A DNA stretch of 40,407 nt from Candidatus Parcubacteria bacterium (GTDB lineage Bacteria > Patescibacteriota > Patescibacteriia > UBA9934 > GWF2-40-263), in contig VGKU01000002.1 of NCBI GenBank assembly GCA_016882235.1, forward strand, positions 1-40,407, read 5' to 3'. Under the pieces are notes generated by a model, which did no database searches, was not told where the DNA came from, and saw nothing but the letters and a program-made list of their open reading frames with translations. Below are positions 8,152-38,890 of the stretch, piece by piece. How positions within the stretch are numbered: position 1 is the stretch's first letter; each line of letters starts with the position of its first letter. The position numbers and the translations under genes were made by a program.

Positions 8152-8300
8152 GTGTCATCCCGCGAGCGTGACTGTGCCCCCTGTGTCATCCCGAGCGAGC
8201 GGTACGGTGCCCCCTGTGTCATCCCGAGCGAGCGTTACGGTGCCCCCTGTGTCATCCCGAGCGAGCGGTACGGTGCCCCCTGTGTCATCCCGAGCGAGCG
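8152..8300 (+). repeat. head-to-tail tandem array, about 4.5 copies of a 33-bp unit GTGTCATCCCGAGCGAGCGGTACGGTGCCCCCT
   Basis: Units start at 8152 (31-nt variant), 8183, 8216 and 8249. A partial unit at 8282 runs straight into the palindromic module. Units abut with no spacers and differ by 1-2 nt (GGTAC vs GTTAC). Confidence 0.9.
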
Positions 8301-8383
8301 TTTATCATCTAGCCGAGGGATCTCGTGTGAATGCGAGATCCCTCCACTCGCCCCGGCGTTGCCGGGGCTCGGTCGGGATGACA
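8282..8383 (+). repeat. 102-nt palindromic structured module, copy 1
   Basis: The outer arms GUCAUCCCGAGCGAGCG ... CUCGGUCGGGAUGAC are inverted. Inside are hairpins GAGGGAUCUCG-UGUGAAUG-CGAGAUCCCUC and CCCCGGC-GUU-GCCGGGG. Copy 2 is 101/102 identical. Confidence 0.88.
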
Positions 8384-8456
8384 AGAAAAAAGCTGTGCCT
8401 GGCTTGGTCGCGATGATAGAAAGCGGTGTCATCCCGCGAGCGTTACGGTGCCCCCT

Positions 8457-8558
8457 GTGTCATCCCGAGCGAGCGTTTATCATCTAGCCGAGGGATCTCC
8501 TGTGAATGCGAGATCCCTCCACTCGCCCCGGCGTTGCCGGGGCTCGGTCGGGATGACA
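8457..8558 (+). repeat. 102-nt palindromic structured module, copy 2 (preceded by one 31-nt tandem-type unit at 8426-8456)
   Basis: Same sequence as 8282-8383 apart from one G>C change in the inner hairpin stem (CUCGUGUG -> CUCCUGUG). Confidence 0.88.
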
Positions 8559-8567
8559 GAAGGCGAT

Positions 8568-8613
8568 GTCATCCTGAGCGCCAGCGAAGGATCTCTGACC
8601 TTGAGATCCTTCG
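8568..8613 (+). repeat. related short variant of the GTCATCC(C/T)GAGCG module
   Basis: GTCATCCTGAGCGCCAGCGAAGGATCTC-TGACCTT-GAGATCCTTCG: same 5' box, with an 11-bp perfect hairpin (8585-8595 / 8603-8613). Confidence 0.7.
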
Positions 8614-8671
8614 TCCCCTCTTCCCGCGCTGTTTTGACTCGTACAGATTTTTCCTCCAAAGTGTTGAAGGT

Positions 8672-11578
8672 ATGGCGTACAACCACCATGAGATTGAACA
8701 CAAATGGCAGAAACGCTGGGACGAGACGGGCGTGTTCCATGCCAACGACGATTCCAACCAGCCCAAATACTATTGCCTGATTGAGTTTCCGTATCCCTCC
8801 GGCGACGGCCTGCATGTGGGCCATCCGCGTTCGTATACCGCGCTGGATGTCATTGCGCGCAAGCGGCGCATGGAAGGGTATAACGTTTTATATCCGATCG
8901 GTTGGGATGCCTTTGGCCTTCCCACCGAGAATTACGCCATCAAGACGGGCCGGCCTCCCCAAGAGGTGACGGCCGAAAACATTGCGACCTTTAAACGCCA
9001 GTTGAAGTCGCTCGGGTTCAGTTTTGACTGGTCGCGCGAAATTAATACGACAGACCCGGAGTATTACAAATGGACGCAATGGATGTTTTTGGAGTTCTTT
9101 CGCGCGGGCCTTGCGTACAAACAAAACATGCCGATCAACTGGTGCCTGTCATGCAAGATCGGGCTAGCCAACGAGGAAGTGGTGGACGGGAAATGCGAAC
9201 GGTGCGGGGGTGCAACAGAGAAGCGCGACAAGGAGCAGTGGATGATTGCGATCACAAAGTACGCCGACCGGTTATTGGACGATTTGGAGACGGTAGATTA
9301 TTTGGAGAAGATTAAAGCTCAACAGCGCAACTGGATCGGCCGGAGCGAAGGGGCGGAGATTCGGTTTGTCATCCAGAGCGACCTTGAGCGAGCGCAAGCG
9401 AGTCAAAATTCCCCCGCCGATGGCGGAGTCGCTCAACAGGACCTGCGCGCCGTTGATGTCTTCACCACACGTCCTGACACCCTTTTTGGTGCAACGTTTC
9501 TGGTCATTTCGCCGGAGGTCGCGCGGACGTGGATAGACGGCGGATGGGATGCGGGGGAAGAGGTGCGCGCGTATGTGACCTCCGCGCTTGCCCATTCCGA
9601 GACGGAGCGCGCAAACGAAGAGCGCGAGAAAACGGGCGTGGATACGGGCGTGAAGGCGGTCAATCCGGCAAACGGAGAACCGATTCCGGTTTGGGTCGCC
9701 GACTATGTGCTTGGCGCGTACGGGACGGGCGCGATCATGGCCGTGCCCGCGCATGACGAGCGGGATTTTGCGTTTGCGACCACGTACGGATTACCGATCC
9801 GGCAAGTGATCCGCAAAACAGGAGCGCCGGTGCGCAGTGTTGTGATGGGCGCAGAGGCGATGACAGAGCAGGATTTTGCGGAGATCGGCGTATCCGTTTT
9901 TGAAAAAACCGAAAAGGGATGTTTCCACGTGGAGATTCCCCGCGGCCGTGAAAAAGATTTTGAACGGTTGATGGTTGAAAAAATGGCGCCCGGGTTTTGG
10001 AACGAATATGTCGGAGACGAAACGGTTTTCCTGTTTACGCATCAGGACGGGCGTAGGGAACGGCTCGTCATGAACGACCAGAATCTCGAGCGGATTGACC
10101 AGCTTGCCTGCGAGTTTAACAACCAAACGTACGACCCCAAAGACCCGGGCAATTATAGAAACGGCGCGTTGGCACGAAACGCATGGTATCGTCCGCTCAT
10201 CGTCCATGAGGAGCCGGGAGTCCTGATGAACTCCGGCACGTTTGACGGGATGGAGAGCGAAGAGGCGAAATGGGCGATCACGCAACAGGTCGGCGGGGAG
10301 AAAAAACTTCGGTACAAGTTGCGCGATGGGTGTTTTCGCGCCAGGCGGTATTGGGGGGAGCCGATTCCGCTTGTGTGGTGCGAGCAGTGTCAGTGGGTTC
10401 CGGTGCCGGATGATCAGCTACCGGTCGTCTTGCCCGCGGTGGACAAATACCAGCCGACCGACTCGGGCGAATCGCCGCTTGCGGCGATCACCGACTGGGT
10501 GAACACGGCCTGCCCGACCTGTGGGGGTCCCGCAAAGCGCGAAACGGACACGATGCCCAACTGGGCCGGTTCCAGTTGGTACTTTTTGGCCTACGCGATG
10601 AAAGGTGTATCCCAGAGTTTAGTGTTCTCCACTTCTTCCGCTTCTCCAGCTTCCCTCTATCTTCCCGCCCTTTCCTACTGGCTCCCCGTGGATTGGTACA
10701 ACGGCGGCATGGAACATACAACCCTCCACTTGCTGTATTCCCGTTTTTGGAACAAGTTTTTGTTTGATCGGGGGCATGCGGCCACAAGCGAACCCTACGC
10801 CAAGCGCACGAGCCATGGGCTGATTCTCGCTGCGGATGGTGCCAAGATGAGCAAGTCGCGCGGAAATGTCGTGAATCCCGACGAAATGGTAGAGCAGTAC
10901 GGCGCGGACGCCGTACGGTTGTATGAGCTGTTTATGGGGCCGTTTGGCGAACCGGTGCCCTGGAGCGTGAACGGGCTCATTGGGATGCGAAGGTTTTTGG
11001 AAAAGGTGGCGGATCTCTCGCTGTCCTTGCAAAAAGCGAGCAACGAAGCCATCTCAGACACACCGAGTCTTTCGCCCGATCACGATCAGGTTCGTCAGAA
11101 CCTCAAAAGGTTGCTGCACCAGACGATCAAAAAAGTGAGCGCTGACCTGGAGGCCATGCGATTTAATACGGCGGTGTCGGCCATGATGGTGTTTGTGAAT
11201 GAAGTAAAAGAACAAGAAAAGAGGATGATGGAAACGGGGGTGCTTGGACGGGAAGACCTGACGTCCTTTCTGCTCTTGCTGTGTCCGTTTGCGCCACACC
11301 TTGCCAATGAATGGCACGAGCGTTTGGGCGGCACGGCATTGCTGGAAACGCTTCCGTGGCCCGCGTACGATCCGGAATTGGCCCGCGAGGAGATCGTGAC
11401 GATTGCGGTGCAGGTGAACGGGAAGTTGCGTGCGACCGTCGAGGCCGCGCCGGACGCAAGCGAGGAAGTTGTGCTCACGCTCGCACTGCATGAGGAGAAT
11501 GTGGAGAAATATCTGCAGGGCAAACATCCCAAGAAAGTGGTCTATGTCTCTGGTCGGATTATCAACGTGATTGTGTAA
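8672..11578 (+). CDS. leuS: leucine--tRNA ligase (long form, 968 aa, with extra insertions)
   Basis: MAYNHHEIEHKWQKRWDE.., the HIGH motif (PYPSGDGLHVGHPRSY), CP1/editing region (TTRPDTLFGATF, AVPAHDERDFAFA), GGMEHTTLHLLYSRFW and KMSKS (GAKMSKSRGN). Start set at ATG 8672; the track ORF start at 8426 merely translates the upstream repeats. Confidence 0.93.
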   Translation: MAYNHHEIEHKWQKRWDETGVFHANDDSNQPKYYCLIEFPYPSGDGLHVGHPRSYTALDVIARKRRMEGYNVLYPIGWDAFGLPTENYAIKTGRPPQEVTAENIATFKRQLKSLGFSFDWSREINTTDPEYYKWTQWMFLEFFRAGLAYKQNMPINWCLSCKIGLANEEVVDGKCERCGGATEKRDKEQWMIAITKYADRLLDDLETVDYLEKIKAQQRNWIGRSEGAEIRFVIQSDLERAQASQNSPADGGVAQQDLRAVDVFTTRPDTLFGATFLVISPEVARTWIDGGWDAGEEVRAYVTSALAHSETERANEEREKTGVDTGVKAVNPANGEPIPVWVADYVLGAYGTGAIMAVPAHDERDFAFATTYGLPIRQVIRKTGAPVRSVVMGAEAMTEQDFAEIGVSVFEKTEKGCFHVEIPRGREKDFERLMVEKMAPGFWNEYVGDETVFLFTHQDGRRERLVMNDQNLERIDQLACEFNNQTYDPKDPGNYRNGALARNAWYRPLIVHEEPGVLMNSGTFDGMESEEAKWAITQQVGGEKKLRYKLRDGCFRARRYWGEPIPLVWCEQCQWVPVPDDQLPVVLPAVDKYQPTDSGESPLAAITDWVNTACPTCGGPAKRETDTMPNWAGSSWYFLAYAMKGVSQSLVFSTSSASPASLYLPALSYWLPVDWYNGGMEHTTLHLLYSRFWNKFLFDRGHAATSEPYAKRTSHGLILAADGAKMSKSRGNVVNPDEMVEQYGADAVRLYELFMGPFGEPVPWSVNGLIGMRRFLEKVADLSLSLQKASNEAISDTPSLSPDHDQVRQNLKRLLHQTIKKVSADLEAMRFNTAVSAMMVFVNEVKEQEKRMMETGVLGREDLTSFLLLLCPFAPHLANEWHERLGGTALLETLPWPAYDPELAREEIVTIAVQVNGKLRATVEAAPDASEEVVLTLALHEENVEKYLQGKHPKKVVYVSGRIINVIV

Positions 11579-16543: not shown

Positions 16544-16606
16544 CTCGCGTTGAGACACGTACGATCTTTGCGTGGACGGGCGCCCGCCAACCCTGGGAGA
16601 CCAGGT

Positions 16607-16631
16607 CGGGGTTGACGACCCCCGTTTTTTT
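16607..16631 (+). terminator. intrinsic terminator after ndk
   Basis: CGGGG-UUGACGAC-CCCCG followed by UUUUUUU. Confidence 0.65.
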
Positions 16632-16691
16632 ATTTACCTTGGCCAATGCCGTATATCCTCACACCGGGGGGAGAGCGTGATTGAATGGGGA

Positions 16692-17813
16692 ATGCTAGAG
16701 GAGTGGCAAGGAGATTGGCTCACGATCAGTGCCAAGGCCATCCGGGAACGCCAGAAGTGGCTGGAGACACTGAACCGCGGCGACCTGCGGCGGTTCACCG
16801 AAGCGATCCGCGAGGCGCGGTCCGGCCGAGTGGGACTAGTGAGGGACTACGCGCCGCATCTGCTCGCGCGACTCTCCATGGACTCGTCCGTGGCGACCGC
16901 AACGCGGGGTAAGCATCTGCTGGAAACTGCCAAGGAGCATGAGCCCAGGGAATGGCCGAACCTCCACACGTGGTTTGATGCCATCTGTGTGTTTGATGCC
17001 TCCGCGGCGCTGGCACTCATTGAACAGCAGGATCCGCGTACGGCCATCGGGGATTCCCTCTACGCCCTCATCGGATTTCTGCGCGAGCGACTGTTCGAAC
17101 CCGGGTTTGAAACGACGGACTTCTATGTCTATCGTGATCCTACCTGCGATTTCACGGTGAGCGAGAGGGACATCGGCATCGGCCGGCATCTCTCGCAACG
17201 CGCCAAGGGGCGCGTCCGGCTCAAGAGTACGCTCAACTGCCGGCGCGTGCGGGGGAACGGTCTCGTCTTTTTGGATGAGCGGCCCAAGGAAGCGTTTTCC
17301 GAATGGGTCAAGGTCCTGCGACAGGTCGCGCTGAAGAAGCCCGATCCGTACCGGATTCGCGATCGGCGCGGGCTCATGCTGGTGTGTGAGAGCCACGCGA
17401 ACATCCTGGCGCTCTGCGACCGCTTGGAGGTTGAGATCAACGCGTCGGGCGGCTGTGTCACCGAGCGGCCTGGCGGGAACCACGAGACGAACGCACCTGT
17501 GGATCCCACGAACCACTCGTCTTCATCGGCGTACAAGGTGGTCAAGCTGTGCGTGCGCTGGCGCGGCCGCGAGTTCGAGATCCAGTTCATTACGTTCTAC
17601 GACTACTTCAACAGCCAACTCTCCACCTCGCCGGCGAACCACCAGCTCTACAAGCTGCGCCAGGCGCTTGAGTTCGCCTTCCCGTTGCTGTTTCCGTCCT
17701 CCGTCTACGGGGTGAAGTGGAATTCCACTTTGATCGGCCAGTTTGAGGCGCGCCTGAAGAGCGCCTTGGTCAAGCGCGTCAACGGCGCTCGCAAGCCGGC
17801 CGATCATTCTTAA
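16692..17813 (+). CDS. orphan protein whose C-terminal half resembles a divergent RelA/SpoT-type (ppGpp-synthetase-like) nucleotidyltransferase domain; N-terminal ~170 aa unassigned
   Basis: Ordered motif matches to the RSH synthetase fold: GRVRLKS (cf. GRxKS), IRDRRGLMLVC (cf. DxxGxRxI), SAYKVVKLCV (cf. GYRSxHxxV), EFEIQFITF (cf. vEIQIRT) and HQLYK (cf. HxxYK). Recognised by eye only. Start uncertain (ATG 16692 or GTG 16677); the track's GTG 16572 would read through the ndk terminator. Confidence 0.45.
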   Translation: MLEEWQGDWLTISAKAIRERQKWLETLNRGDLRRFTEAIREARSGRVGLVRDYAPHLLARLSMDSSVATATRGKHLLETAKEHEPREWPNLHTWFDAICVFDASAALALIEQQDPRTAIGDSLYALIGFLRERLFEPGFETTDFYVYRDPTCDFTVSERDIGIGRHLSQRAKGRVRLKSTLNCRRVRGNGLVFLDERPKEAFSEWVKVLRQVALKKPDPYRIRDRRGLMLVCESHANILALCDRLEVEINASGGCVTERPGGNHETNAPVDPTNHSSSSAYKVVKLCVRWRGREFEIQFITFYDYFNSQLSTSPANHQLYKLRQALEFAFPLLFPSSVYGVKWNSTLIGQFEARLKSALVKRVNGARKPADHS

Positions 17814-17816
17814 CTC

Positions 17817-17841
17817 GCAGGCCCCACAGGCCTGCTTTTTT
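17817..17841 (+). terminator. intrinsic terminator after the RelA/SpoT-like gene
   Basis: GCAGGCC-CCACA-GGCCUGC followed by UUUUUU, 4 nt after the TAA stop. Confidence 0.8.
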
Positions 17842-17975
17842 GTTCCAGTCCGCCGTTGGAAGGTGGAATGGACGCGCAGACGGTTGAACACATTTTTTAT
17901 CTCAAAATCGTCGGGTATTTTTGACGCAACGGACTACCGACTGTTTGGCCCGGGCGTGAACATGCAGACGAGAGA

Positions 17976-18019
17976 TGTGGATAACATCGTGGATAGTTCT
18001 GTGGAAAAAATGTGGAGGG
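17976..18019 (+). promoter_or_regulatory. four phased direct repeats of (T/C)GTGGA, the first a perfect DnaA-box complement (TGTGGATAA)
   Basis: TGTGGATAA at 17976, CGTGGATAG at 17988, TGTGGAAAA at 18000 and TGTGGAGGG at 18011. Spacing is 12, 12 and 11 bp, all in the same orientation, ending about 17 bp upstream of the -35 of the RNA promoter. Confidence 0.55.
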
Positions 18020-18035
18020 ACAGCCCTTTGCAAAC

Positions 18036-18063
18036 TTGCACTTCTCTGTCAGAGTGTTAAATT
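18036..18063 (+). promoter_or_regulatory. sigma-70-type promoter for the structured RNA
   Basis: TTGCAC (18036-18041), a 16-nt spacer, then TGT-TAAATT (extended -10, 18055-18063). The predicted start near 18069-18071 coincides with the first base of helix P1. Confidence 0.5.
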
Positions 18064-18068
18064 TAAAA

Positions 18069-18350
18069 GTGCCTAACGGCCGGGTGGGTGCGCCCATTGA
18101 TTACAAGTAATTCTCCGGCCTGGGTGTGCCCTGCTTCGGCAGGGCAAGAGGGCCATACGGCAGTGACTTCCCTTCGTGGACGGCACACTGGACGCAATCT
18201 CGTGTTCCCGTCGCGCAGGGGAGATGGTATGGGCGACACAAAGAAAAACGACCCATGCCATGACCGACTAGATTTACTCTGTCCAGGGCCACCCATTCCC
18301 CCGTTAGGCACGAAAAACCCTCAAGCGTAGACCGTGGCTTGAGGGTTTTT
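18069..18350 (+). ncRNA. structured RNA of unrecognised family, either a stand-alone ncRNA or a long cis-regulatory leader of the downstream membrane/antiporter genes
   Basis: An 11-bp perfect closing helix pairs 18069-18079 (GUGCCUAACGG) with 18301-18311 (CCGUUAGGCAC). Further helices: GGGUGG 18082-87 / CCACCC 18289-94, and CCUGG 18119-23 / CCAGG 18283-87. Hairpins: a UUCG-capped 7-bp hairpin at 18128-18145, and an 8-10-bp hairpin with an A-rich loop at 18226-18259. An intrinsic terminator follows (CCCUCAAGC..GCUUGAGGG+UUUUU, 18313-18350). No convincing ORF or SD is present. Confidence 0.55.
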
Positions 18351-18363
18351 CAATGAAGTGGTG

Positions 18364-18774
18364 ATGCGCCACAGGACTCCTTCTTTTCACCCATTCTCAC
18401 CTATGCCCCATCGCTTCGCCTCCTTCTCCACGATCGCGATCTACACCTTTGTCGCGTGGGTGATCGTCCAGTTTATCTTTTCGTTTGCGCTCTCTCTGCC
18501 GCGCGGCGCGTTCATCGCCGTCCATTATCTCGCGGTTATCCTTGCGTTTGCACTCATTTTCCGCGCGTACTTTGATGTTCATCCCAACGCAGACGCCTTT
18601 GACACCACCGCACAGGCGATTCTCGTAATGCTGATTTTTGAAGGCATTTTTCTCGCCTTTTACGCGAGCGACCCACTGCGGTTTCTCAATTATACGGACT
18701 GGATTGTCCCGACGTTCCTCACGGCCTGTGCGATTTACTTCGTCGGCAAACCATCCACAGCAAACATCGCTTAA
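18364..18774 (+). CDS. small 4-TM membrane protein, unknown family (paralog of 20473-20838)
   Basis: Four hydrophobic helices. Shares FLN(Y/F)xDWIxPxFL...IY..G and H(Y)..V..AF motifs with the ORF at 20473. Start uncertain (GTG 18358, ATG 18364 or ATG 18403). Confidence 0.65.
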   Translation: MRHRTPSFHPFSPMPHRFASFSTIAIYTFVAWVIVQFIFSFALSLPRGAFIAVHYLAVILAFALIFRAYFDVHPNADAFDTTAQAILVMLIFEGIFLAFYASDPLRFLNYTDWIVPTFLTACAIYFVGKPSTANIA

Positions 18775-18812: not shown

Positions 18813-18856
18813 ACTATCCGACACTGGGTGTCACCGACACCAGTGTTCACTCATCT

Positions 18857-20215
18857 ATGTTCAAATGGAAATGGCTCTCTCTTGCCGTGCTCGGGACGCT
18901 CGCCGCGCACAGTGTGCTCGCCAGCGGCGGTGCTTCCGCAAACGAAGGGCATGGCGCGGGTATAACGCTTCTGTGGATCGCCGTGATTTTGATTGCGGCC
19001 AAGATCGCGTCGTTGGTCGAGCGTGTGGGCCAACCGGCCGTCTTGGGTGAGTTAGTGATGGGCGTGATTTTGGGCAACCTGGTCTTACTGGGAGTGAATC
19101 TGTTTGAGCCGATTAAGCAGAACGAGATCATCGCTTTTCTTTCAGAGCTTGGTGTCGTGATCCTCTTGTTCCAGATTGGGCTGGAATCCAATATCCAACA
19201 GATGCGCAAGGTCGGCCTCTCGGCTTTTCTTGTCGCGGTCGTCGGTGTGGTCGCTCCGTTTGTGCTGGGCACCTATCTTGTTGGCCCATGGCTTATGCCC
19301 GGTCTGTCGAGCGCCGCCTACCTCTTCCTCGGCGCGTCGCTTACAGCAACGTCCGTTGGCATCACGGCGCGTGTCTTTAAGGACTTAGGCAAGCTCAAGA
19401 CACCCGAAGCACAGATCGTGCTGGGCGCCGCCGTGTTTGACGACGTGCTCGGGCTCATCATCCTTGCGGTCGTGACCGCGATCGCGACGGTCGGAGCGGT
19501 AAGCGTCGGGGCCATTAGCTGGATTATTGCCAAAGCGTTCTTGTTTCTCATTGGTGCCATTTTGGTTGGTACCATCAGCGCTCCTTGGCTGGGTCGTGCA
19601 TTCTCGCGCATCCAGACGGGCGTTGGGATGAAGTTCACGCTTGCGCTCGCGTTTTGTCTGGTCTTTGCGTACGTCTCGGGACTGATTGGCCTTGCGCCTA
19701 TCGTCGGCGCGTTTGCGGCCGGCTTGGTGCTCGACCCGGTACACTTCCGGTATTTCAAAGCGCCAAAAATGGTGGAGGAGATTATGGAGACAGCGGAAGG
19801 GCAGAGCGAAGAAGTCAAAAAGAAATTGCACACGATGGTTGAGCACCATGCCGAGCGCCACATTGAAGAATTGATTGAGCCGGTTGCCTATCTCCTCGTG
19901 CCGATCTTTTTTATCCTGACCGGCATGAACGTGGCGTTGGAGACGCTGTTTAATCCGAAGATCATCGGCATTGCGCTCGCGATTACGCTGGTGGCGGTGA
20001 TCGGCAAAGTGATCACTGGCCTCGTCGCCGGTCCGGTGAAGAAAGCGATCGTCGGCGTGGGGATGATTCCGCGCGGCGAAGTCGGCCTCATCTTTGCGTC
20101 GATCGGCAAAGGGCTCGGGGTGCTCTCCGACGACTTGTTCTCCGTGATTGTCGTCATGGTGATTTTGACGACGCTTCTCGCCCCGCCCGTCTTGGCGCGT
20201 CAATTGAAGAAGTAG
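18857..20215 (+). CDS. cation:proton antiporter (CPA1/CPA2, Na+/H+ exchanger or Kef-type membrane domain)
   Basis: About 452 aa and polytopic. Signal-like N-terminus, then QPAVLGELVMGVILGN, ELGVVILLFQIGLES and MIPRGEVGLIFASIG, typical of the Na_H_exchanger family. Start at ATG 18857 (the track ORF runs from 18638 out of the previous gene). Confidence 0.85.
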   Translation: MFKWKWLSLAVLGTLAAHSVLASGGASANEGHGAGITLLWIAVILIAAKIASLVERVGQPAVLGELVMGVILGNLVLLGVNLFEPIKQNEIIAFLSELGVVILLFQIGLESNIQQMRKVGLSAFLVAVVGVVAPFVLGTYLVGPWLMPGLSSAAYLFLGASLTATSVGITARVFKDLGKLKTPEAQIVLGAAVFDDVLGLIILAVVTAIATVGAVSVGAISWIIAKAFLFLIGAILVGTISAPWLGRAFSRIQTGVGMKFTLALAFCLVFAYVSGLIGLAPIVGAFAAGLVLDPVHFRYFKAPKMVEEIMETAEGQSEEVKKKLHTMVEHHAERHIEELIEPVAYLLVPIFFILTGMNVALETLFNPKIIGIALAITLVAVIGKVITGLVAGPVKKAIVGVGMIPRGEVGLIFASIGKGLGVLSDDLFSVIVVMVILTTLLAPPVLARQLKK

Positions 20216-20412: not shown

Positions 20413-20472
20413 AGGGGGCACTCTGGAAAGGCACGGATGACGCCGAACGCAGCTTGGCGTATAGTGGGGAAC

Positions 20473-20838
20473 ATGTCGATGTTCGTAGACACGCTGATCA
20501 TCTTTTTGCATGCCCTGGTTGCGTGGGTGCTGGTTGAGGTGTTTGTAAACAACGCGTACCGCCTTTCCCGCCCACAGTATGTCTTTTTCCATTATGTCAG
20601 CGTGGTCGCGGCGTTCGCGATCGCGTTTTTCGTTTACTTTCAGTTTTTTGCTGCTGGGTGGGCCGTCTTCTTTGTCACCATGACGGCGCTCGGGTTTGTC
20701 CTGCTCTTGGAGATCATTGTGTTTGGATATCTCTACAGCGGCGACAGATGGTTTTTGAATTTTGCGGATTGGATTTTTCCGATGTTTCTTGCCACCAGCA
20801 CGATCTACCTCATGGGAGTCTTGCTTGCCGGACGGTAG
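20473..20838 (+). CDS. small 4-TM membrane protein, unknown family (paralog of 18364-18774)
   Basis: 121 aa from ATG 20473 (GGGGA 4 nt upstream). Same helix layout and C-terminal FLNFADWIFPMFLATSTIYLMG motif as the upstream paralog. Confidence 0.7.
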   Translation: MSMFVDTLIIFLHALVAWVLVEVFVNNAYRLSRPQYVFFHYVSVVAAFAIAFFVYFQFFAAGWAVFFVTMTALGFVLLLEIIVFGYLYSGDRWFLNFADWIFPMFLATSTIYLMGVLLAGR

Positions 20839-20891: not shown

Positions 20892-22199
20892 ATGCCAGAT
20901 ATTTTCCGCATTACGGGCGGGCGGCCGCTTGAGGGCAGTATGACGCTTTCGGGCGCGAAAAACGCCGCGTCGAAAATGATGATTGCCAGTTTGCTCACAG
21001 AGGAGCCGGTCATTCTCAAAAATGTCCCGCGCCAGCAGGAGACGCAGATCACACAGGAAATCCTGGAGGCCGCGGGCGCGCGTGTTGAGTGGGAAGGGGA
21101 GAACACGCTCCTGTGCGAGGCACGCACGGTCGGCGCGGGAAACGCCGGCACGCTCTCGCGCAAAAACCGCATCAGTATCCTCTCGCTCGCGCCGCTTCTC
21201 CATCGCGCGGGCGAGGCGGTCGTGCCGCTTGTGGGCGGCGATGCGATCGGTCCCCGTCCGGTCAACTTCCATCTGGAAATCCTCCGCAAGATGGGCGCGC
21301 AGATTGACGAGGCGTCTGACCATTACCGCGCCGTCGCCAAAAAGCGCCTCAAAGGGACGCTCATTGAACTCTCCTATCCGTCCGTGGGCGCAACCGAAAC
21401 GGCGATCCTTGCGGGCGTGCTCGCCGATGGACGCACGGTCATTCGAAATGCCGCGAGCGAGCCGGAAGTGGAAGAGCTGGTGATGATGTTACAAACCATG
21501 GGGGCGATCATTCAGCTGAATGCCGGTCGCGTGATTGAGATTATCGGGGTGGAACGCTTGCACGGGACCTGTGTGCGGGTGATGCCCGACCGGATTGAGG
21601 CGGCATCCTATGCGTGCATGGCGCTGGGCACGCGCGGAGAGATTTTGGTGCGTGGGGCACAGCATGAACATCTCATTACGTTTTTGAACACCGTACGCAA
21701 GATCGGGGGAGAGTACGACGTGCGAGCGGACGGCATTTTGTTCAAGGGCGCGCGCGCGTATAAAGGGATTGAATTGGAGACGGATACGCATCCTGGGTTT
21801 ATGACGGACTGGCAACAGCCGTTTGTCGTCTTGCTCACCCAAGCGAAAGGCACATCGGTCGTGCATGAAACCGTGTATGAGGAGCGGTTTGGGTATACAG
21901 CGGCATTGAACCAGATGGGCGCGAGCGTGACCCTCTTTAGCAACTGTTTGGGGGAAGTTAATTGCCGATTTAAAGGCCAGAACTATCGCCACAGCGCGGT
22001 GATCACCGGGCCTACGTCGTTGCACGCCACCGATGTGACCGTGCCGGACATCCGCGCGGGCCTGGCGTTTGTGGTGGCCGCCATGGTGGCCGAAGGGACC
22101 TCCAACTTGTCCGGGATTGAACACCTGGACCGCGGCTACGAACAGCTGGAAGAGAAATTAAAAAGTGTCGGTGCTACCATAGAGAGGGTATGTTCTTGA
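20892..22199 (+). CDS. murA: UDP-N-acetylglucosamine 1-carboxyvinyltransferase
   Basis: 435 aa. ITGGRPLEGSMTLSGAKNAASKMMIASLL, EPSP-synthase-fold repeats, and PGFMTDWQQPF near the C-terminal half. Confidence 0.92.
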   Translation: MPDIFRITGGRPLEGSMTLSGAKNAASKMMIASLLTEEPVILKNVPRQQETQITQEILEAAGARVEWEGENTLLCEARTVGAGNAGTLSRKNRISILSLAPLLHRAGEAVVPLVGGDAIGPRPVNFHLEILRKMGAQIDEASDHYRAVAKKRLKGTLIELSYPSVGATETAILAGVLADGRTVIRNAASEPEVEELVMMLQTMGAIIQLNAGRVIEIIGVERLHGTCVRVMPDRIEAASYACMALGTRGEILVRGAQHEHLITFLNTVRKIGGEYDVRADGILFKGARAYKGIELETDTHPGFMTDWQQPFVVLLTQAKGTSVVHETVYEERFGYTAALNQMGASVTLFSNCLGEVNCRFKGQNYRHSAVITGPTSLHATDVTVPDIRAGLAFVVAAMVAEGTSNLSGIEHLDRGYEQLEEKLKSVGATIERVCS

Positions 22200-34895: not shown

Positions 34896-34904
34896 GTTAT
34901 TGAA

Positions 34905-35024
34905 GGACGAACGACATGGAGACCAGTTTGGGTGCACACGTGTCCAATCCCGAAGCTGTCGCAGAGCGAGAGCGAGGCGATGGAAAGGACCCGTAAGCCC
35001 AAAGTGGACCGATGTCGTTCGTCC
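34905..35024 (+). repeat. long-hairpin element, copy A (S19|L22 spacer, 120 nt)
   Basis: A perfect 13-bp closing stem pairs GGACGAACGACAU with AUGUCGUUCGUCC. The second helix is CCAGUUUGGG / CCCAAAGUGG. Conserved blocks are GUGUCCAAUC, GUCGCAGAGCGA, GCGAGGCGAUGGA and CGUAAGCCC. Confidence 0.8.
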
Positions 35025-35032
35025 CTCTCCCT

Positions 35033-36068: not shown

Positions 36069-36184
36069 ACCACTCCCATTGGATCATTTCGGGCTGATGG
36101 GTTCCGTTCGATCGTCTTGCTCTGTGGCGTTCCCGCGAGACGATCGGATACCTGCCTGTCCAAACTGATCGCAACTGGAGTGGT
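36069..36184 (-). repeat. long-hairpin element, copy D (S3|L16 spacer, 116 nt), inverted relative to copies A/B/C/J
   Basis: The closing stem pairs ACCACUCC with GGAGUGGU, and an inner 9-bp stem pairs CGAUCGUCU with AGACGAUCG. Its reverse complement aligns along its length with copy A: CAGUUUGG, GGUAUCCGAUCG~CGUGUCCAAUCC, CACAGAGCAAGA~CGCAGAGCGAGA, CGAUCGAACGGAACCC~CGAUGGAAAGGACCC and AGCCCGAAAUG~AGCCCAAAGUG. Confidence 0.7.
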
Positions 36185-37023: not shown

Positions 37024-37029
37024 ATAGAT

Positions 37030-37149
37030 GGACGAGCCATGTTGGATGCAGGTTGGGCGCACGGGTGTCCAATCGCCAGAGCGGGAGAGTGCAACCGCGA
37101 GGCGATGGACGGGACTCGTAAGCCCCACATGCGCTGACATGGCTTGTCC
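37030..37149 (+). repeat. long-hairpin element, copy B (S17|L14 spacer, 120 nt)
   Basis: The closing stem pairs GGACGAGCCAUGU with ACAUGGCUUGUCC (12 WC plus 1 G.U). The inner continuous helix is GUCCA(A)UCGCC / GGCGAUGGAC. Same length and block order as copy A. Confidence 0.8.
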
Positions 37150-37155
37150 ACTCCT

Positions 37156-37527
37156 ATGGTACAGCTTAGGTCCATGCTCGTGGTTGCCGACAACTCGGGC
37201 GCAAAAAAATTACAGGTGATCCGCGTGCTTGGGGGCTACCGGAAACGGTATGCCCGCATCGGCGATCTTGTGGTTGCCGCCGTGAAGCAGGCCGTCCCGC
37301 ACGCCACCGTCAAAAAGAGCGATGTCGTGACCGCCGTGATCGTGCGTACGCGCAAGGAAATGCGTCGTCAGGACGGGACCTACATTCGGTTTGACGAGAA
37401 CGCCGCGGTCATCATTGACAAGAAGACACGAGACCCCAAGGGGACGCGCATCTTCGGGCCGATCGCGCGCGAATTGCGTCCGCTCGGGTTTGGAAAAATT
37501 ATTTCGCTCGCGCCTGAAGTGCTCTAA
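37156..37527 (+). CDS. rplN: 50S ribosomal protein L14
   Basis: [42 protein letters not shown]...VKK.DVV.AVIVRT.K. Start at ATG 37156. Confidence 0.97.
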
Positions 37528-37530
37528 AGA

Positions 37531-37653
37531 GACCTGTGTCCAAATGAGAGGAGATTGCGGCGCGCGGATGTCCAAGGGAATCGCGGGAGCGTGCTCCTGC
37601 GAGGCGATGGACGGAAATCGCCAGCCGCAAGGTCGCTCATTTGGAAACAGGTC
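37531..37653 (+). repeat. long-hairpin element, copy C (L14|L24 spacer, 123 nt)
   Basis: The 18-nt closing stem pairs GACCUGUGUCCAAAUGAG with CUCAUUUGGAAACAGGUC (17/18). The second helix is UUGCGGC / GCCGCAA. Blocks are AUGUCCAAGGGAAUCGCG and GCGAGGCGAUGGACGG. Confidence 0.8.
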
Positions 37654-37659
37654 ACACGT

Positions 37660-38764: not shown

Positions 38765-38890
38765 CGATCGTTACAAAATTGGATGAGATTTCGATGCATG
38801 GGGAAGCCAGCCGTCGAGCCGTCGCAGAGCGACAGGGAGACGGTGGCGGAGTCCCCAGGAATCAAAATATCGCCAATTTTGTAACGATCG
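38765..38890 (+). repeat. long-hairpin element, copy J (S14|S8 spacer, 126 nt)
   Basis: A perfect 18-bp closing stem pairs CGAUCGUUACAAAAUUGG with CCAAUUUUGUAACGAUCG. It has the post-stem AUGAGAUU. The interior GUCGCAGAGCGACAGGGAGACGGUGG aligns with copy A's GUCGCAGAGCGAGAGCGAGGCGAUGG. Confidence 0.8.

Follow-up and report, generated by a model that had tools for sequence, protein, structure and literature searches.

The DNA analysed here is a stretch of 40,407 nt from Candidatus Parcubacteria bacterium (GenBank assembly GCA_016882235.1, contig VGKU01000002.1, positions 1 to 40,407 of the forward strand), referred to below as the window, and the element in question is a predicted structured RNA of about 280 nt at 18069-18350 on the + strand. 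The RNA lies in a gap of 544 nt between an open reading frame (ORF) of 413 amino acids (aa), at 16572-17813, and the next plausible coding region; the ORF ends with its own terminator (17817-17835). The gap also contains, all on the + strand, a 65-codon C-terminal remnant of murI, the gene for an Asp/Glu racemase (17863-18060, identified by tblastn), four phased direct repeats that resemble DnaA boxes (17976-18019), and a promoter-like site (18036-18063). Downstream of the RNA lie genes for a small membrane protein, a Na+/H+ antiporter (18850-20215) and MurA (20892-22196).

The promoter, predicted from its motif and its conservation, is of the sigma-70 type with an extended -10 element. The -35 hexamer TTGCAC (18036-18041) is followed by a 16-nt spacer ending in TGT and by the -10 hexamer TAAATT (18058-18063), just as the first-pass annotation had read the site from the sequence. 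The predicted RNA runs from a presumed start 6-8 nt past the -10 hexamer through the end of the terminator, with a fold z-score of -8.6. The intrinsic terminator (18313-18350), likewise proposed in that annotation, is a 15-bp stem (CCCUCAAGC.../...GCUUGAGGG) flanked by A-U pairs, preceded by an A-tract and followed by a U-tract; a consensus scan for terminators missed it solely because its loop measures 10 nt. The further claim that no credible ORF lies inside needs qualification, as frames of 80-82 codons are open in the RNA region of the window. No reading frame is consistently open across the homologues described below, however, indicating that the RNA is not coding.

Homologues were collected by using first the antiporter and next MurA homologues as anchors, followed by a single metagenome scan with a DNA pattern; nhmmer and a covariance model served for detection. 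The antiporter-anchored scan returned 21 loci, of which L001 is the sole true relative of the window, the rest coming from other phyla of the candidate phyla radiation (CPR) that do not carry the RNA. The downstream 123-aa membrane protein matched itself alone when used as an anchor, and has no word-level homologue in a database of 5.8 billion proteins. For MurA, the best named relatives belong to Candidatus Uhrbacteria and the Patescibacteria group (72-77% identity), with unnamed ones reaching 84%. The metagenome scan, run with a pattern from the RNA only, gave 15 matches, 3 of them true and 12 due to chance, the latter inside an IS21-like transposase gene. Two different patterns scanned against IMG/VR gave no match, indicating that the RNA is not viral.

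In total, 10 homologues were found beyond the window, giving 11 copies, all on contigs of Uhrbacteria-like CPR. They lie at L001:8116-8371, L022:5501-5737, L023:5761-5996, L024:7379-7591, L026:8611-8837, L032:5755-6013, L050:7220-7470 and L051:4919-5141, and on the - strand at L038:3798-4012 and L039:2565-2779. RNA length among the copies is 213-259 nt, and the GC content of the loci ranges from about 40 to 59%. The contigs are syntenic with the window (murA, M50 peptidase, rpsL-rpsG-fusA) and are related to Candidatus Uhrbacteria. This includes L001, which is labelled Gammaproteobacteria but shares about 20 kb of synteny with the window (ComEC, MBL, NDK, the 413-aa ORF, antiporter, MurA, M50 peptidase, S12 and S7) and has an EF-G 83% identical to that of the window. 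Together with the MurA matches, this synteny marks the window as a contig of an Uhrbacteria-like CPR bacterium. The covariance model R1 scores the 11 copies at 161-198 bits on the + strand versus 11-30 bits on the reverse. Run over 38 sources, which included other CPR phyla with a similar antiporter and three murA contexts of Uhrbacteria-like type, it found no further or more distant copy. Each locus has one copy, at the syntenic position, and a repeat scan of the window listed no second one.

The promoter and the terminator recur with the RNA. The motif CTTG(C/T)...AG..TG.TA..TT is conserved in all 11 copies, with the first base of the closing helix P1 5-6 nt later, and the hexamers and the TG are retained across the full range of locus GC content. 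The promoter is also conserved where the DNA is non-coding (L001, L032 and L024/L038/L039). An A-tract/hairpin/U-tract terminator lies about 25 nt or less from P1 in 9 of the 11 copies, with a different stem sequence in each, and the spacer between the two is A-rich and 2-15 nt long.

The window RNA has a minimum free energy (MFE) of -148 kcal/mol, which none of 200 shuffled sequences matched; the opposite strand folds less well (z -6.1), and conserved G-U pairs are located on the + strand. Over the 11 RNAs, fold z-scores range from -2.4 to -7.5. The first-pass annotation had named covariation among relatives as a check on the RNA, and this was examined with a fixed core structure of 35 pairs counted on alignment A7, a plain unguided MAFFT alignment. 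The core helices are paired in 90.3% of cells, versus 34-50% in controls with the partners slid over 1-3 columns, and the covariation score is 0.306 versus 0.11-0.15. Not one of 500 shuffles equalled the observed pairing or covariation, and eleven core pairs have changed on both sides. RNAalifold, applied to the same alignment, recovered helices P1, P2/P2a, P3 and P4 with 12 pairs showing two-sided changes. The comparison shows a predicted fold in which a rod of about 23 bp, P1-P2-P2a, bears a junction with the P3-P4 hairpin, a long variable arm P5 and an optional arm P6. The folded domain is about 250 nt long and the terminator hairpin comes after it.

Several of these helices had been picked out in the window before any homologue was available. 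P1, the perfect 11-bp closing helix (18069-18079 with 18301-18311), comprises 10 aligned pairs, none of them less than 73% paired; compensatory changes occur at columns 8/257 and 12/253, and L050 and L051 show further compensated ones. The GGGUGG/CCACCC helix corresponds to P2 (18082-89 with 18291-98) and is conserved, and P2a (18090-95 with 18286-90) continues the rod in a pairing register that varies by clade. The UGGGU/ACCCA core of P2/P2a is invariant, while covariation is seen at columns 15/250 (GC in 6 copies, AU in 4) and 17/248. The 3' strands of P2a, P2 and P1 occupy 18286-18311. In P3 (18117-21 with 18150-54), pairing reaches 94.5% and 3 of the 5 pairs show two-sided changes. P4 (18127-34 with 18139-46), which is the hairpin reported as UUCG-capped, reaches 84% pairing and has two-sided changes in 3 of its 7 pairs. 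Its loop sequence varies among copies, and the asymmetric internal loop between P3 and P4, GGGNN opposite ANA, is conserved. Two other proposed helices did not survive comparison: CCUGG/CCAGG and CAGUG/CACUG are complementary strings in the window, but their 55.6% pairing equals that of shuffled and slid controls.

Between the rod and the arms lie strongly conserved strands. The 5' junction strand (18096-18116) has the consensus (A/U)UGAUU(U/A)CAA(A/G)... and near-invariant columns in alignments A6 and A7; when the conserved strand CTTGTAATCAA was searched for targets in the window, matches were at chance level. ACGG follows P3 (18157-18160) and is invariant in A7. The 3' junction strand (18262-18285) includes ACCGA (18263-67), an instance of the motif (A/U)CC(G/A)N that is retained in all 11 copies. 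This motif could pair with ACGG in most sequences, as a candidate helix 'Px'. By eye, the extension of the CGG/CCG pairing covaries in some homologues (UUU/AAA in L001, UU/AA in L032, A/U in L024 and L038) and does not do so in the window, L022 or L026.

The P5 arm (18167-18223), which lies between ACGG and (A/U)CC(G/A)N, is a long irregular hairpin with the outer helix CUUCCCU/AGGGGAG in the window, and it forms in all 11 copies when the segment is folded alone. Its outer helices are unrelated in sequence between lineages, the others being CUGUUG/CAACAG, UCUGAGA/UCUUGGA, CCGAUGUCA/UGACAUACGG and CUUUUUGCA/UGCAAAGAG. RNAalifold found no consensus for the isolated arms because MAFFT misaligns the outer helices, so per-sequence folds and the inner helix were used instead; the latter is 84.6% paired, versus 22-36% when slid by 1-2 columns. 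The A-rich-loop hairpin of the first-pass annotation is P6 (18224-18261), a variable arm that proved optional: it is present in the window, L001, L022, L023, L032 and L050, and absent or minimal in L024, L038, L039 and L051.

It had also been suggested that the RNA shares sequence blocks with hairpins of the ribosomal-protein operon, and might be an expanded or founder relative of them. These are near-perfect hairpins of about 120 nt between ribosomal-protein genes, at 34900-35030, 37025-37155 and 37525-37655, with MFE values of -67 to -76 kcal/mol (z -7 to -8.5), a common core GUGUCCAA...GCGAGGCGAUGGA and no Rfam match; weaker copies lie at 36077-36175 (- strand) and 38773-38881. Kinship with these hairpins, or more broadly an origin as a functionless repeated or mobile hairpin element, would account for the few short strings in common, including a GUGUCCAAU-like string in both family consensuses. 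Yet reciprocal searches with hidden Markov models (HMMs) found no similarity in either direction. The model built from the three hairpins found them and the two weaker copies, and nothing at 18.0-18.4 kb, while the model of the RNA family matched only 18066-18352 in the window at E<=100. The RNA occurs as a single syntenic copy per locus, no other copy appeared in the window repeat scan, and it covaries in the manner of a multi-helix fold under selection. We regard this relationship as extremely unlikely. The related contigs have unusually long rpsJ (S10)-rplC (L3) gaps of 229-308 nt in the S10 operon (L024:20383-20677, L026:18990-19219, L050:19061-19369), which might hold structured elements like the intergenic hairpins of the window.

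That the RNA belongs to no recognised family agrees with searches of Rfam 15 (4227 models). At the gathering score there was no match in the whole window, and the sole match in 7 homologous loci was an unrelated tRNA. At E<=10, scattered weak matches appeared (IRE_I, PtaRNA1, snoRNAs, and L10_leader on the reverse strand), none of which recurs across three homologues. ARAGORN found no tRNA or tmRNA in the window, and the 3' end of the RNA is GGCAC-A-rich, not the CCA of a tmRNA. Signal recognition particle (SRP) RNA is recognised by its domain IV hairpin, in which a GNRA tetraloop and the internal loops for Ffh are conserved; here, the P4 and P5 arms end in loops that differ in both sequence and length between homologues (UUCG, UCCG, UUU, CCACG and others), and no Rfam SRP model matched. 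The hallmark of RNase P RNA is the pair of regions CR-I and CR-V, which form the P4 pseudoknot. The family consensus has no GGAAAGUCC or ACAGAA-CCGGCUUA blocks and no RNase P model matched at E<=10. An RNase P-like reading of ACGG...CCGA was rejected because the pairing is nested and forms no pseudoknot, CR-I and CR-V are missing, and Rfam gives no RNase P match. The literature on non-coding RNAs (ncRNAs) of CPR bacteria yielded nothing relevant, although a very recent description is possible.

Among known kinds of RNA, the most serious rival is a divergent RNA-polymerase binder related to 6S RNA or Ms1, in which the P1-P2 rod would stand in for the duplex DNA downstream and the A/U-rich 5' junction strand for the bubble of an open promoter. 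Such RNAs are stand-alone genes with strong-looking promoters, as this one appears to be, and the long closing rod with small bulges and the adjoining conserved A/U-rich strand of 20 nt suit the idea. Sequence searches also easily miss homologues of 6S RNA, and such RNAs can bear extra hairpins, as in Ms1. The Rfam 6S model, however, found nothing even at E<=10 in three homologues. The topology of 6S RNA, two long helices flanking a large central bubble, is not that of the predicted fold, where the rod leads into a junction with P3-P4, P5 and the optional P6: three arms in place of one long terminal helix. What would be the 3' side of the bubble bears 70-110 nt of arms, and the 5' junction strand (UGAUUNCAA) can pair with the 3' junction strand, as 'P7', in most homologues. 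On balance, we consider a 6S-like RNA unlikely.

The gene context bears on whether the RNA is a gene or a leader. The first-pass annotation placed the RNA upstream of an antiporter module and offered two layouts, a stand-alone ncRNA and a large riboswitch-like leader. As a leader, a large aptamer with a terminator would respond to an ion or metabolite by attenuating transcription into the genes for the small membrane protein and the Na+/H+ antiporter. The window on its own makes this tempting, since the terminator ends 8-50 nt ahead of the next possible start codons, a Na_H_Exchanger gene follows, and the size and closed multi-helix layout recall large aptamers; L001 also has an antiporter, 1.5 kb downstream. 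These are, however, the only 2 of the 11 loci with an antiporter nearby, so that the placement is correct for the window but is not conserved, and the conserved neighbour is instead murI, upstream. The gene downstream of the RNA differs at nearly every locus. It encodes the 123-aa membrane protein in the window and a PEBP-like protein in L001, it is one of a range of ORFs of 63-178 aa in L022-L026 and L050, and in L032 and L051 the next gene lies on the opposite strand. A leader would be expected to keep its place ahead of one functionally coherent set of genes, and this RNA does not.

The terminator layout tells against a leader as well. The A-rich spacer isolates the terminator from P1, terminator stems are unrelated between homologues, MFE folds keep the two helices independent, and inspection revealed no competing partner for the 3' strand of P1. 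A rod of 23 bp is also far more stable than a switching P1, and no Rfam riboswitch model, cation classes included, gave a match. A leader is thus very unlikely, and of the two layouts the stand-alone ncRNA is the one that the RNA's own promoter, the recurring terminators and the covariation support.

Two observations on the neighbouring membrane proteins may be recorded here. A family of small membrane proteins (112-139 aa, no Pfam match) recurs between the RNA and murA, often in two copies (window 18403-18774 and 20437-20838; L026:8912-9268 and 9590-9988; L050:7544-7912; and others), at 0.3-2.8 kb from the RNA, which we read as synteny with no fixed 5'-untranslated-region relation. Copies of the Na+/H+ antiporter with 58-74% identity (loci L002-L021) occur across many different CPR phyla, in a Nanoarchaeota metagenome-assembled genome (MAG) and in MAGs that carry a Gammaproteobacteria or Deltaproteobacteria label. 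None of these loci shows synteny with the window, and the distribution points to extensive horizontal spread, to mislabelled MAGs, or to both.

Upstream, murI directly precedes the RNA in 8 of the 11 loci, the exceptions being L032 (ndk), L001 (a gene on the opposite strand) and the window with its remnant. The MurI proteins of L022, L051 and L026 match the window by tblastn at 17866-18054 only (E 1e-13 to 1e-9, about 50% identity), over their last 57 or so residues. The rest of murI is missing at this position of the window, as is the M19 dipeptidase gene that precedes murI in the relatives. The deletion of murI in the window thus stopped just upstream of the regulatory region of the RNA, which survived. 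In most of the relatives, an intact murI gene ends just before or inside the promoter region of the RNA. In L022, L023 and L051, the MurI tail (...VDxxWxxxPFQTCxxLSE*) runs through the promoter, so that coding sequence and promoter share the same DNA. In L026 (8520-8600), L024 (7290-7370) and L050 (7140-7215), the tail contains in-frame stops and the nucleotides downstream of them are still kept; these segments align with window 17976-18060. Since promoter nucleotides are kept past the stops and at non-coding loci, the constraint is at least partly on the DNA.

This arrangement raises the alternative that the RNA is a structured 3' untranslated region of the murI mRNA, processed from it or acting as a stabiliser or insulator, and not an independent gene. 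Its position directly after murI at most loci and the murI frame that enters the promoter region in L022, L023 and L051 are what such an element would show. The RNA and its promoter persist, however, where murI does not: the window keeps only its 65-codon remnant, L001 has a gene on the opposite strand in that place, and in L032 ndk precedes the RNA. The promoter hexamers are also invariant even past the in-frame stops in L026, L024 and L050. We judge a murI 3' element to be decidedly improbable.

The four repeats upstream of the promoter are TGTGGATAA (17976-84), CGTGGATAG (17988-96), TGTGGAAAA (18000-08) and TGTGGAGGG (18011-19). Compared with the DnaA box TTATCCACA (here in the form TGTGGATAA), they agree at 9/9, 7/9, 8/9 and 6/9 positions, with spacings of 12, 12 and 11 bp, and thus form a cluster of multiple phased 9-mers near TTATCCACA, a putative DnaA-binding site. 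Counted from the -35 hexamer, the boxes that agree at 7/9 or more positions fall at -36, -48 and -60, in a single orientation. The -36 box is present in all 11 copies, including those at non-coding loci (L001, L024, L038 and L039). The window as a whole shows no enrichment of boxes with one mismatch or none (8 found versus 4.2 expected), and in some genomes the repeats upstream of the RNA also code for a VDxx peptide repeat within the tail of MurI. A replication origin at this site was considered and rejected: the flanking genes are co-oriented on the + strand and there is no GC-skew switch at 18 kb, from which we read the array as a promoter-linked DnaA-box cluster. Clusters of DnaA boxes are known from promoters and non-origin regions, such as datA/DARS in Escherichia coli and the clusters of Bacillus subtilis. 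The phased array suggests that DnaA may modulate transcription of the RNA.

Taken together, the locus is probably a stand-alone gene for a structured ncRNA, of a family outside Rfam and found so far only in Uhrbacteria-like CPR. We hypothesize that the RNA is transcribed from its own sigma-70-type extended -10 promoter, located in or just past the 3' end of murI. Transcription would begin at the first base of P1 and would halt at the intrinsic terminator of the RNA, which would act in trans as a folded molecule and not as a cis-regulator. The trans action is inferred from the invariant rod and junction strands, the freely varying arms and the changing downstream gene. As to what it does in trans, a role as a protein-binding or scaffold RNA seems the likeliest, though we hold it at appreciably less than even confidence and protein binding itself is a guess. 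A bolder version, in which a CPR-specific RNA is under DnaA control through the box array, tying the state of replication and the cell cycle to the trans activity of a compact, tertiary-folded RNA, is a long shot. If true, that activity might be, for example, protein sequestration or that of a ligand-binding or catalytic core, and the regulatory axis would have no described counterpart.

Several points weigh against the proposal of a stand-alone, trans-acting RNA. The start, end and expression of the RNA are deduced from the sequence, and the trans-acting, protein-binding role is argued from anatomy and context. Because the promoter overlaps the murI coding tail in several genomes, part of its conservation could be coding, and the RNA may be co-transcribed with murI and then processed. 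L022 and L023 have no clear terminator. P7 (judged by eye) and Px could form in most sequences, and neither shows double compensatory changes. The RNA was also not found within 10 kb of murA in three related Uhrbacteria-like contexts (L028/29, L030/31 and L048/49). Finally, the 11 sequences represent about 6-7 lineages of one clade, and with so few sequences from a single clade the covariation statistics are modest.

CPR bacteria, or Patescibacteria, make up a large share of bacterial diversity and, to our knowledge, almost no lineage-specific ncRNAs have been described for them. A structured RNA of about 250 nt that has persisted through large changes in GC content and the local loss of genes probably does something that these reduced organisms need. 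The family alignment, the covariance model and the predicted ends make it a concrete candidate for testing, and the fixed array of DnaA-box-like repeats offers a hypothesis on its control that can be checked. The comparison also corrects the tempting reading of the locus as a cation riboswitch for the antiporter.

Elsewhere in the window, a 33-nt tandem repeat (GCGAGCGnnACnGTGCCCCCTGTGTCATCCCGA, about 4.5 copies) occupies 8162-8326, and a unit of 123 nt is duplicated 175 nt apart (8261-8383/8436-8558), each with an internal inverted repeat GAGGGATCTC; both sit just before or at the start of a 1050-aa ORF (8426-11578). The 413-aa ORF upstream of the RNA adjoins ndk in the relatives, with 36% identity in L001, and has no Pfam or PDB match. 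Its C-terminal FEIQFITF...HQLYK recalls what we take to be a RelA/SpoT synthetase motif, a resemblance that no search supported.

The RNA can be compared with several known systems. Closest in general character are lineage-restricted 'motif' RNAs, the raiA motif RNA among them, which are likewise discrete genes of a few hundred nucleotides with their own promoter and terminator, and have a covarying multi-helix fold, a conserved core, variable arms, a narrow range and a function that is not known. The present RNA differs from these in having no Rfam 15 match, in its CPR/Uhrbacteria hosts, in its fixed position after murI and in the DnaA-box-like array upstream. With 6S RNA and Ms1 it shares a stand-alone gene, a strong-looking promoter and a long rod made from the 5' and 3' ends with an adjoining conserved A/U-rich strand; unlike them, it matches no covariance model, has a three-arm junction and not one terminal helix, and shows no clear two-sided central bubble. 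Its closed multi-helix domain followed by a terminator, here upstream of a Na+/H+ antiporter, is like that of large aptamers and attenuating leaders, among them the cation-responsive classes known from sites upstream of antiporters (nhaA-I and DUF1646). Unlike riboswitch leaders, it has no conserved downstream gene, its terminator is not interlocked with P1, and its rod is too long and stable for a switch helix. The upstream array, in turn, resembles clusters of the datA/DARS type in having several 9-mers that match TTATCCACA, in one orientation and about one helical turn apart, but unlike those clusters it stands at a fixed distance from the promoter of an ncRNA and lies partly within the murI coding tail.

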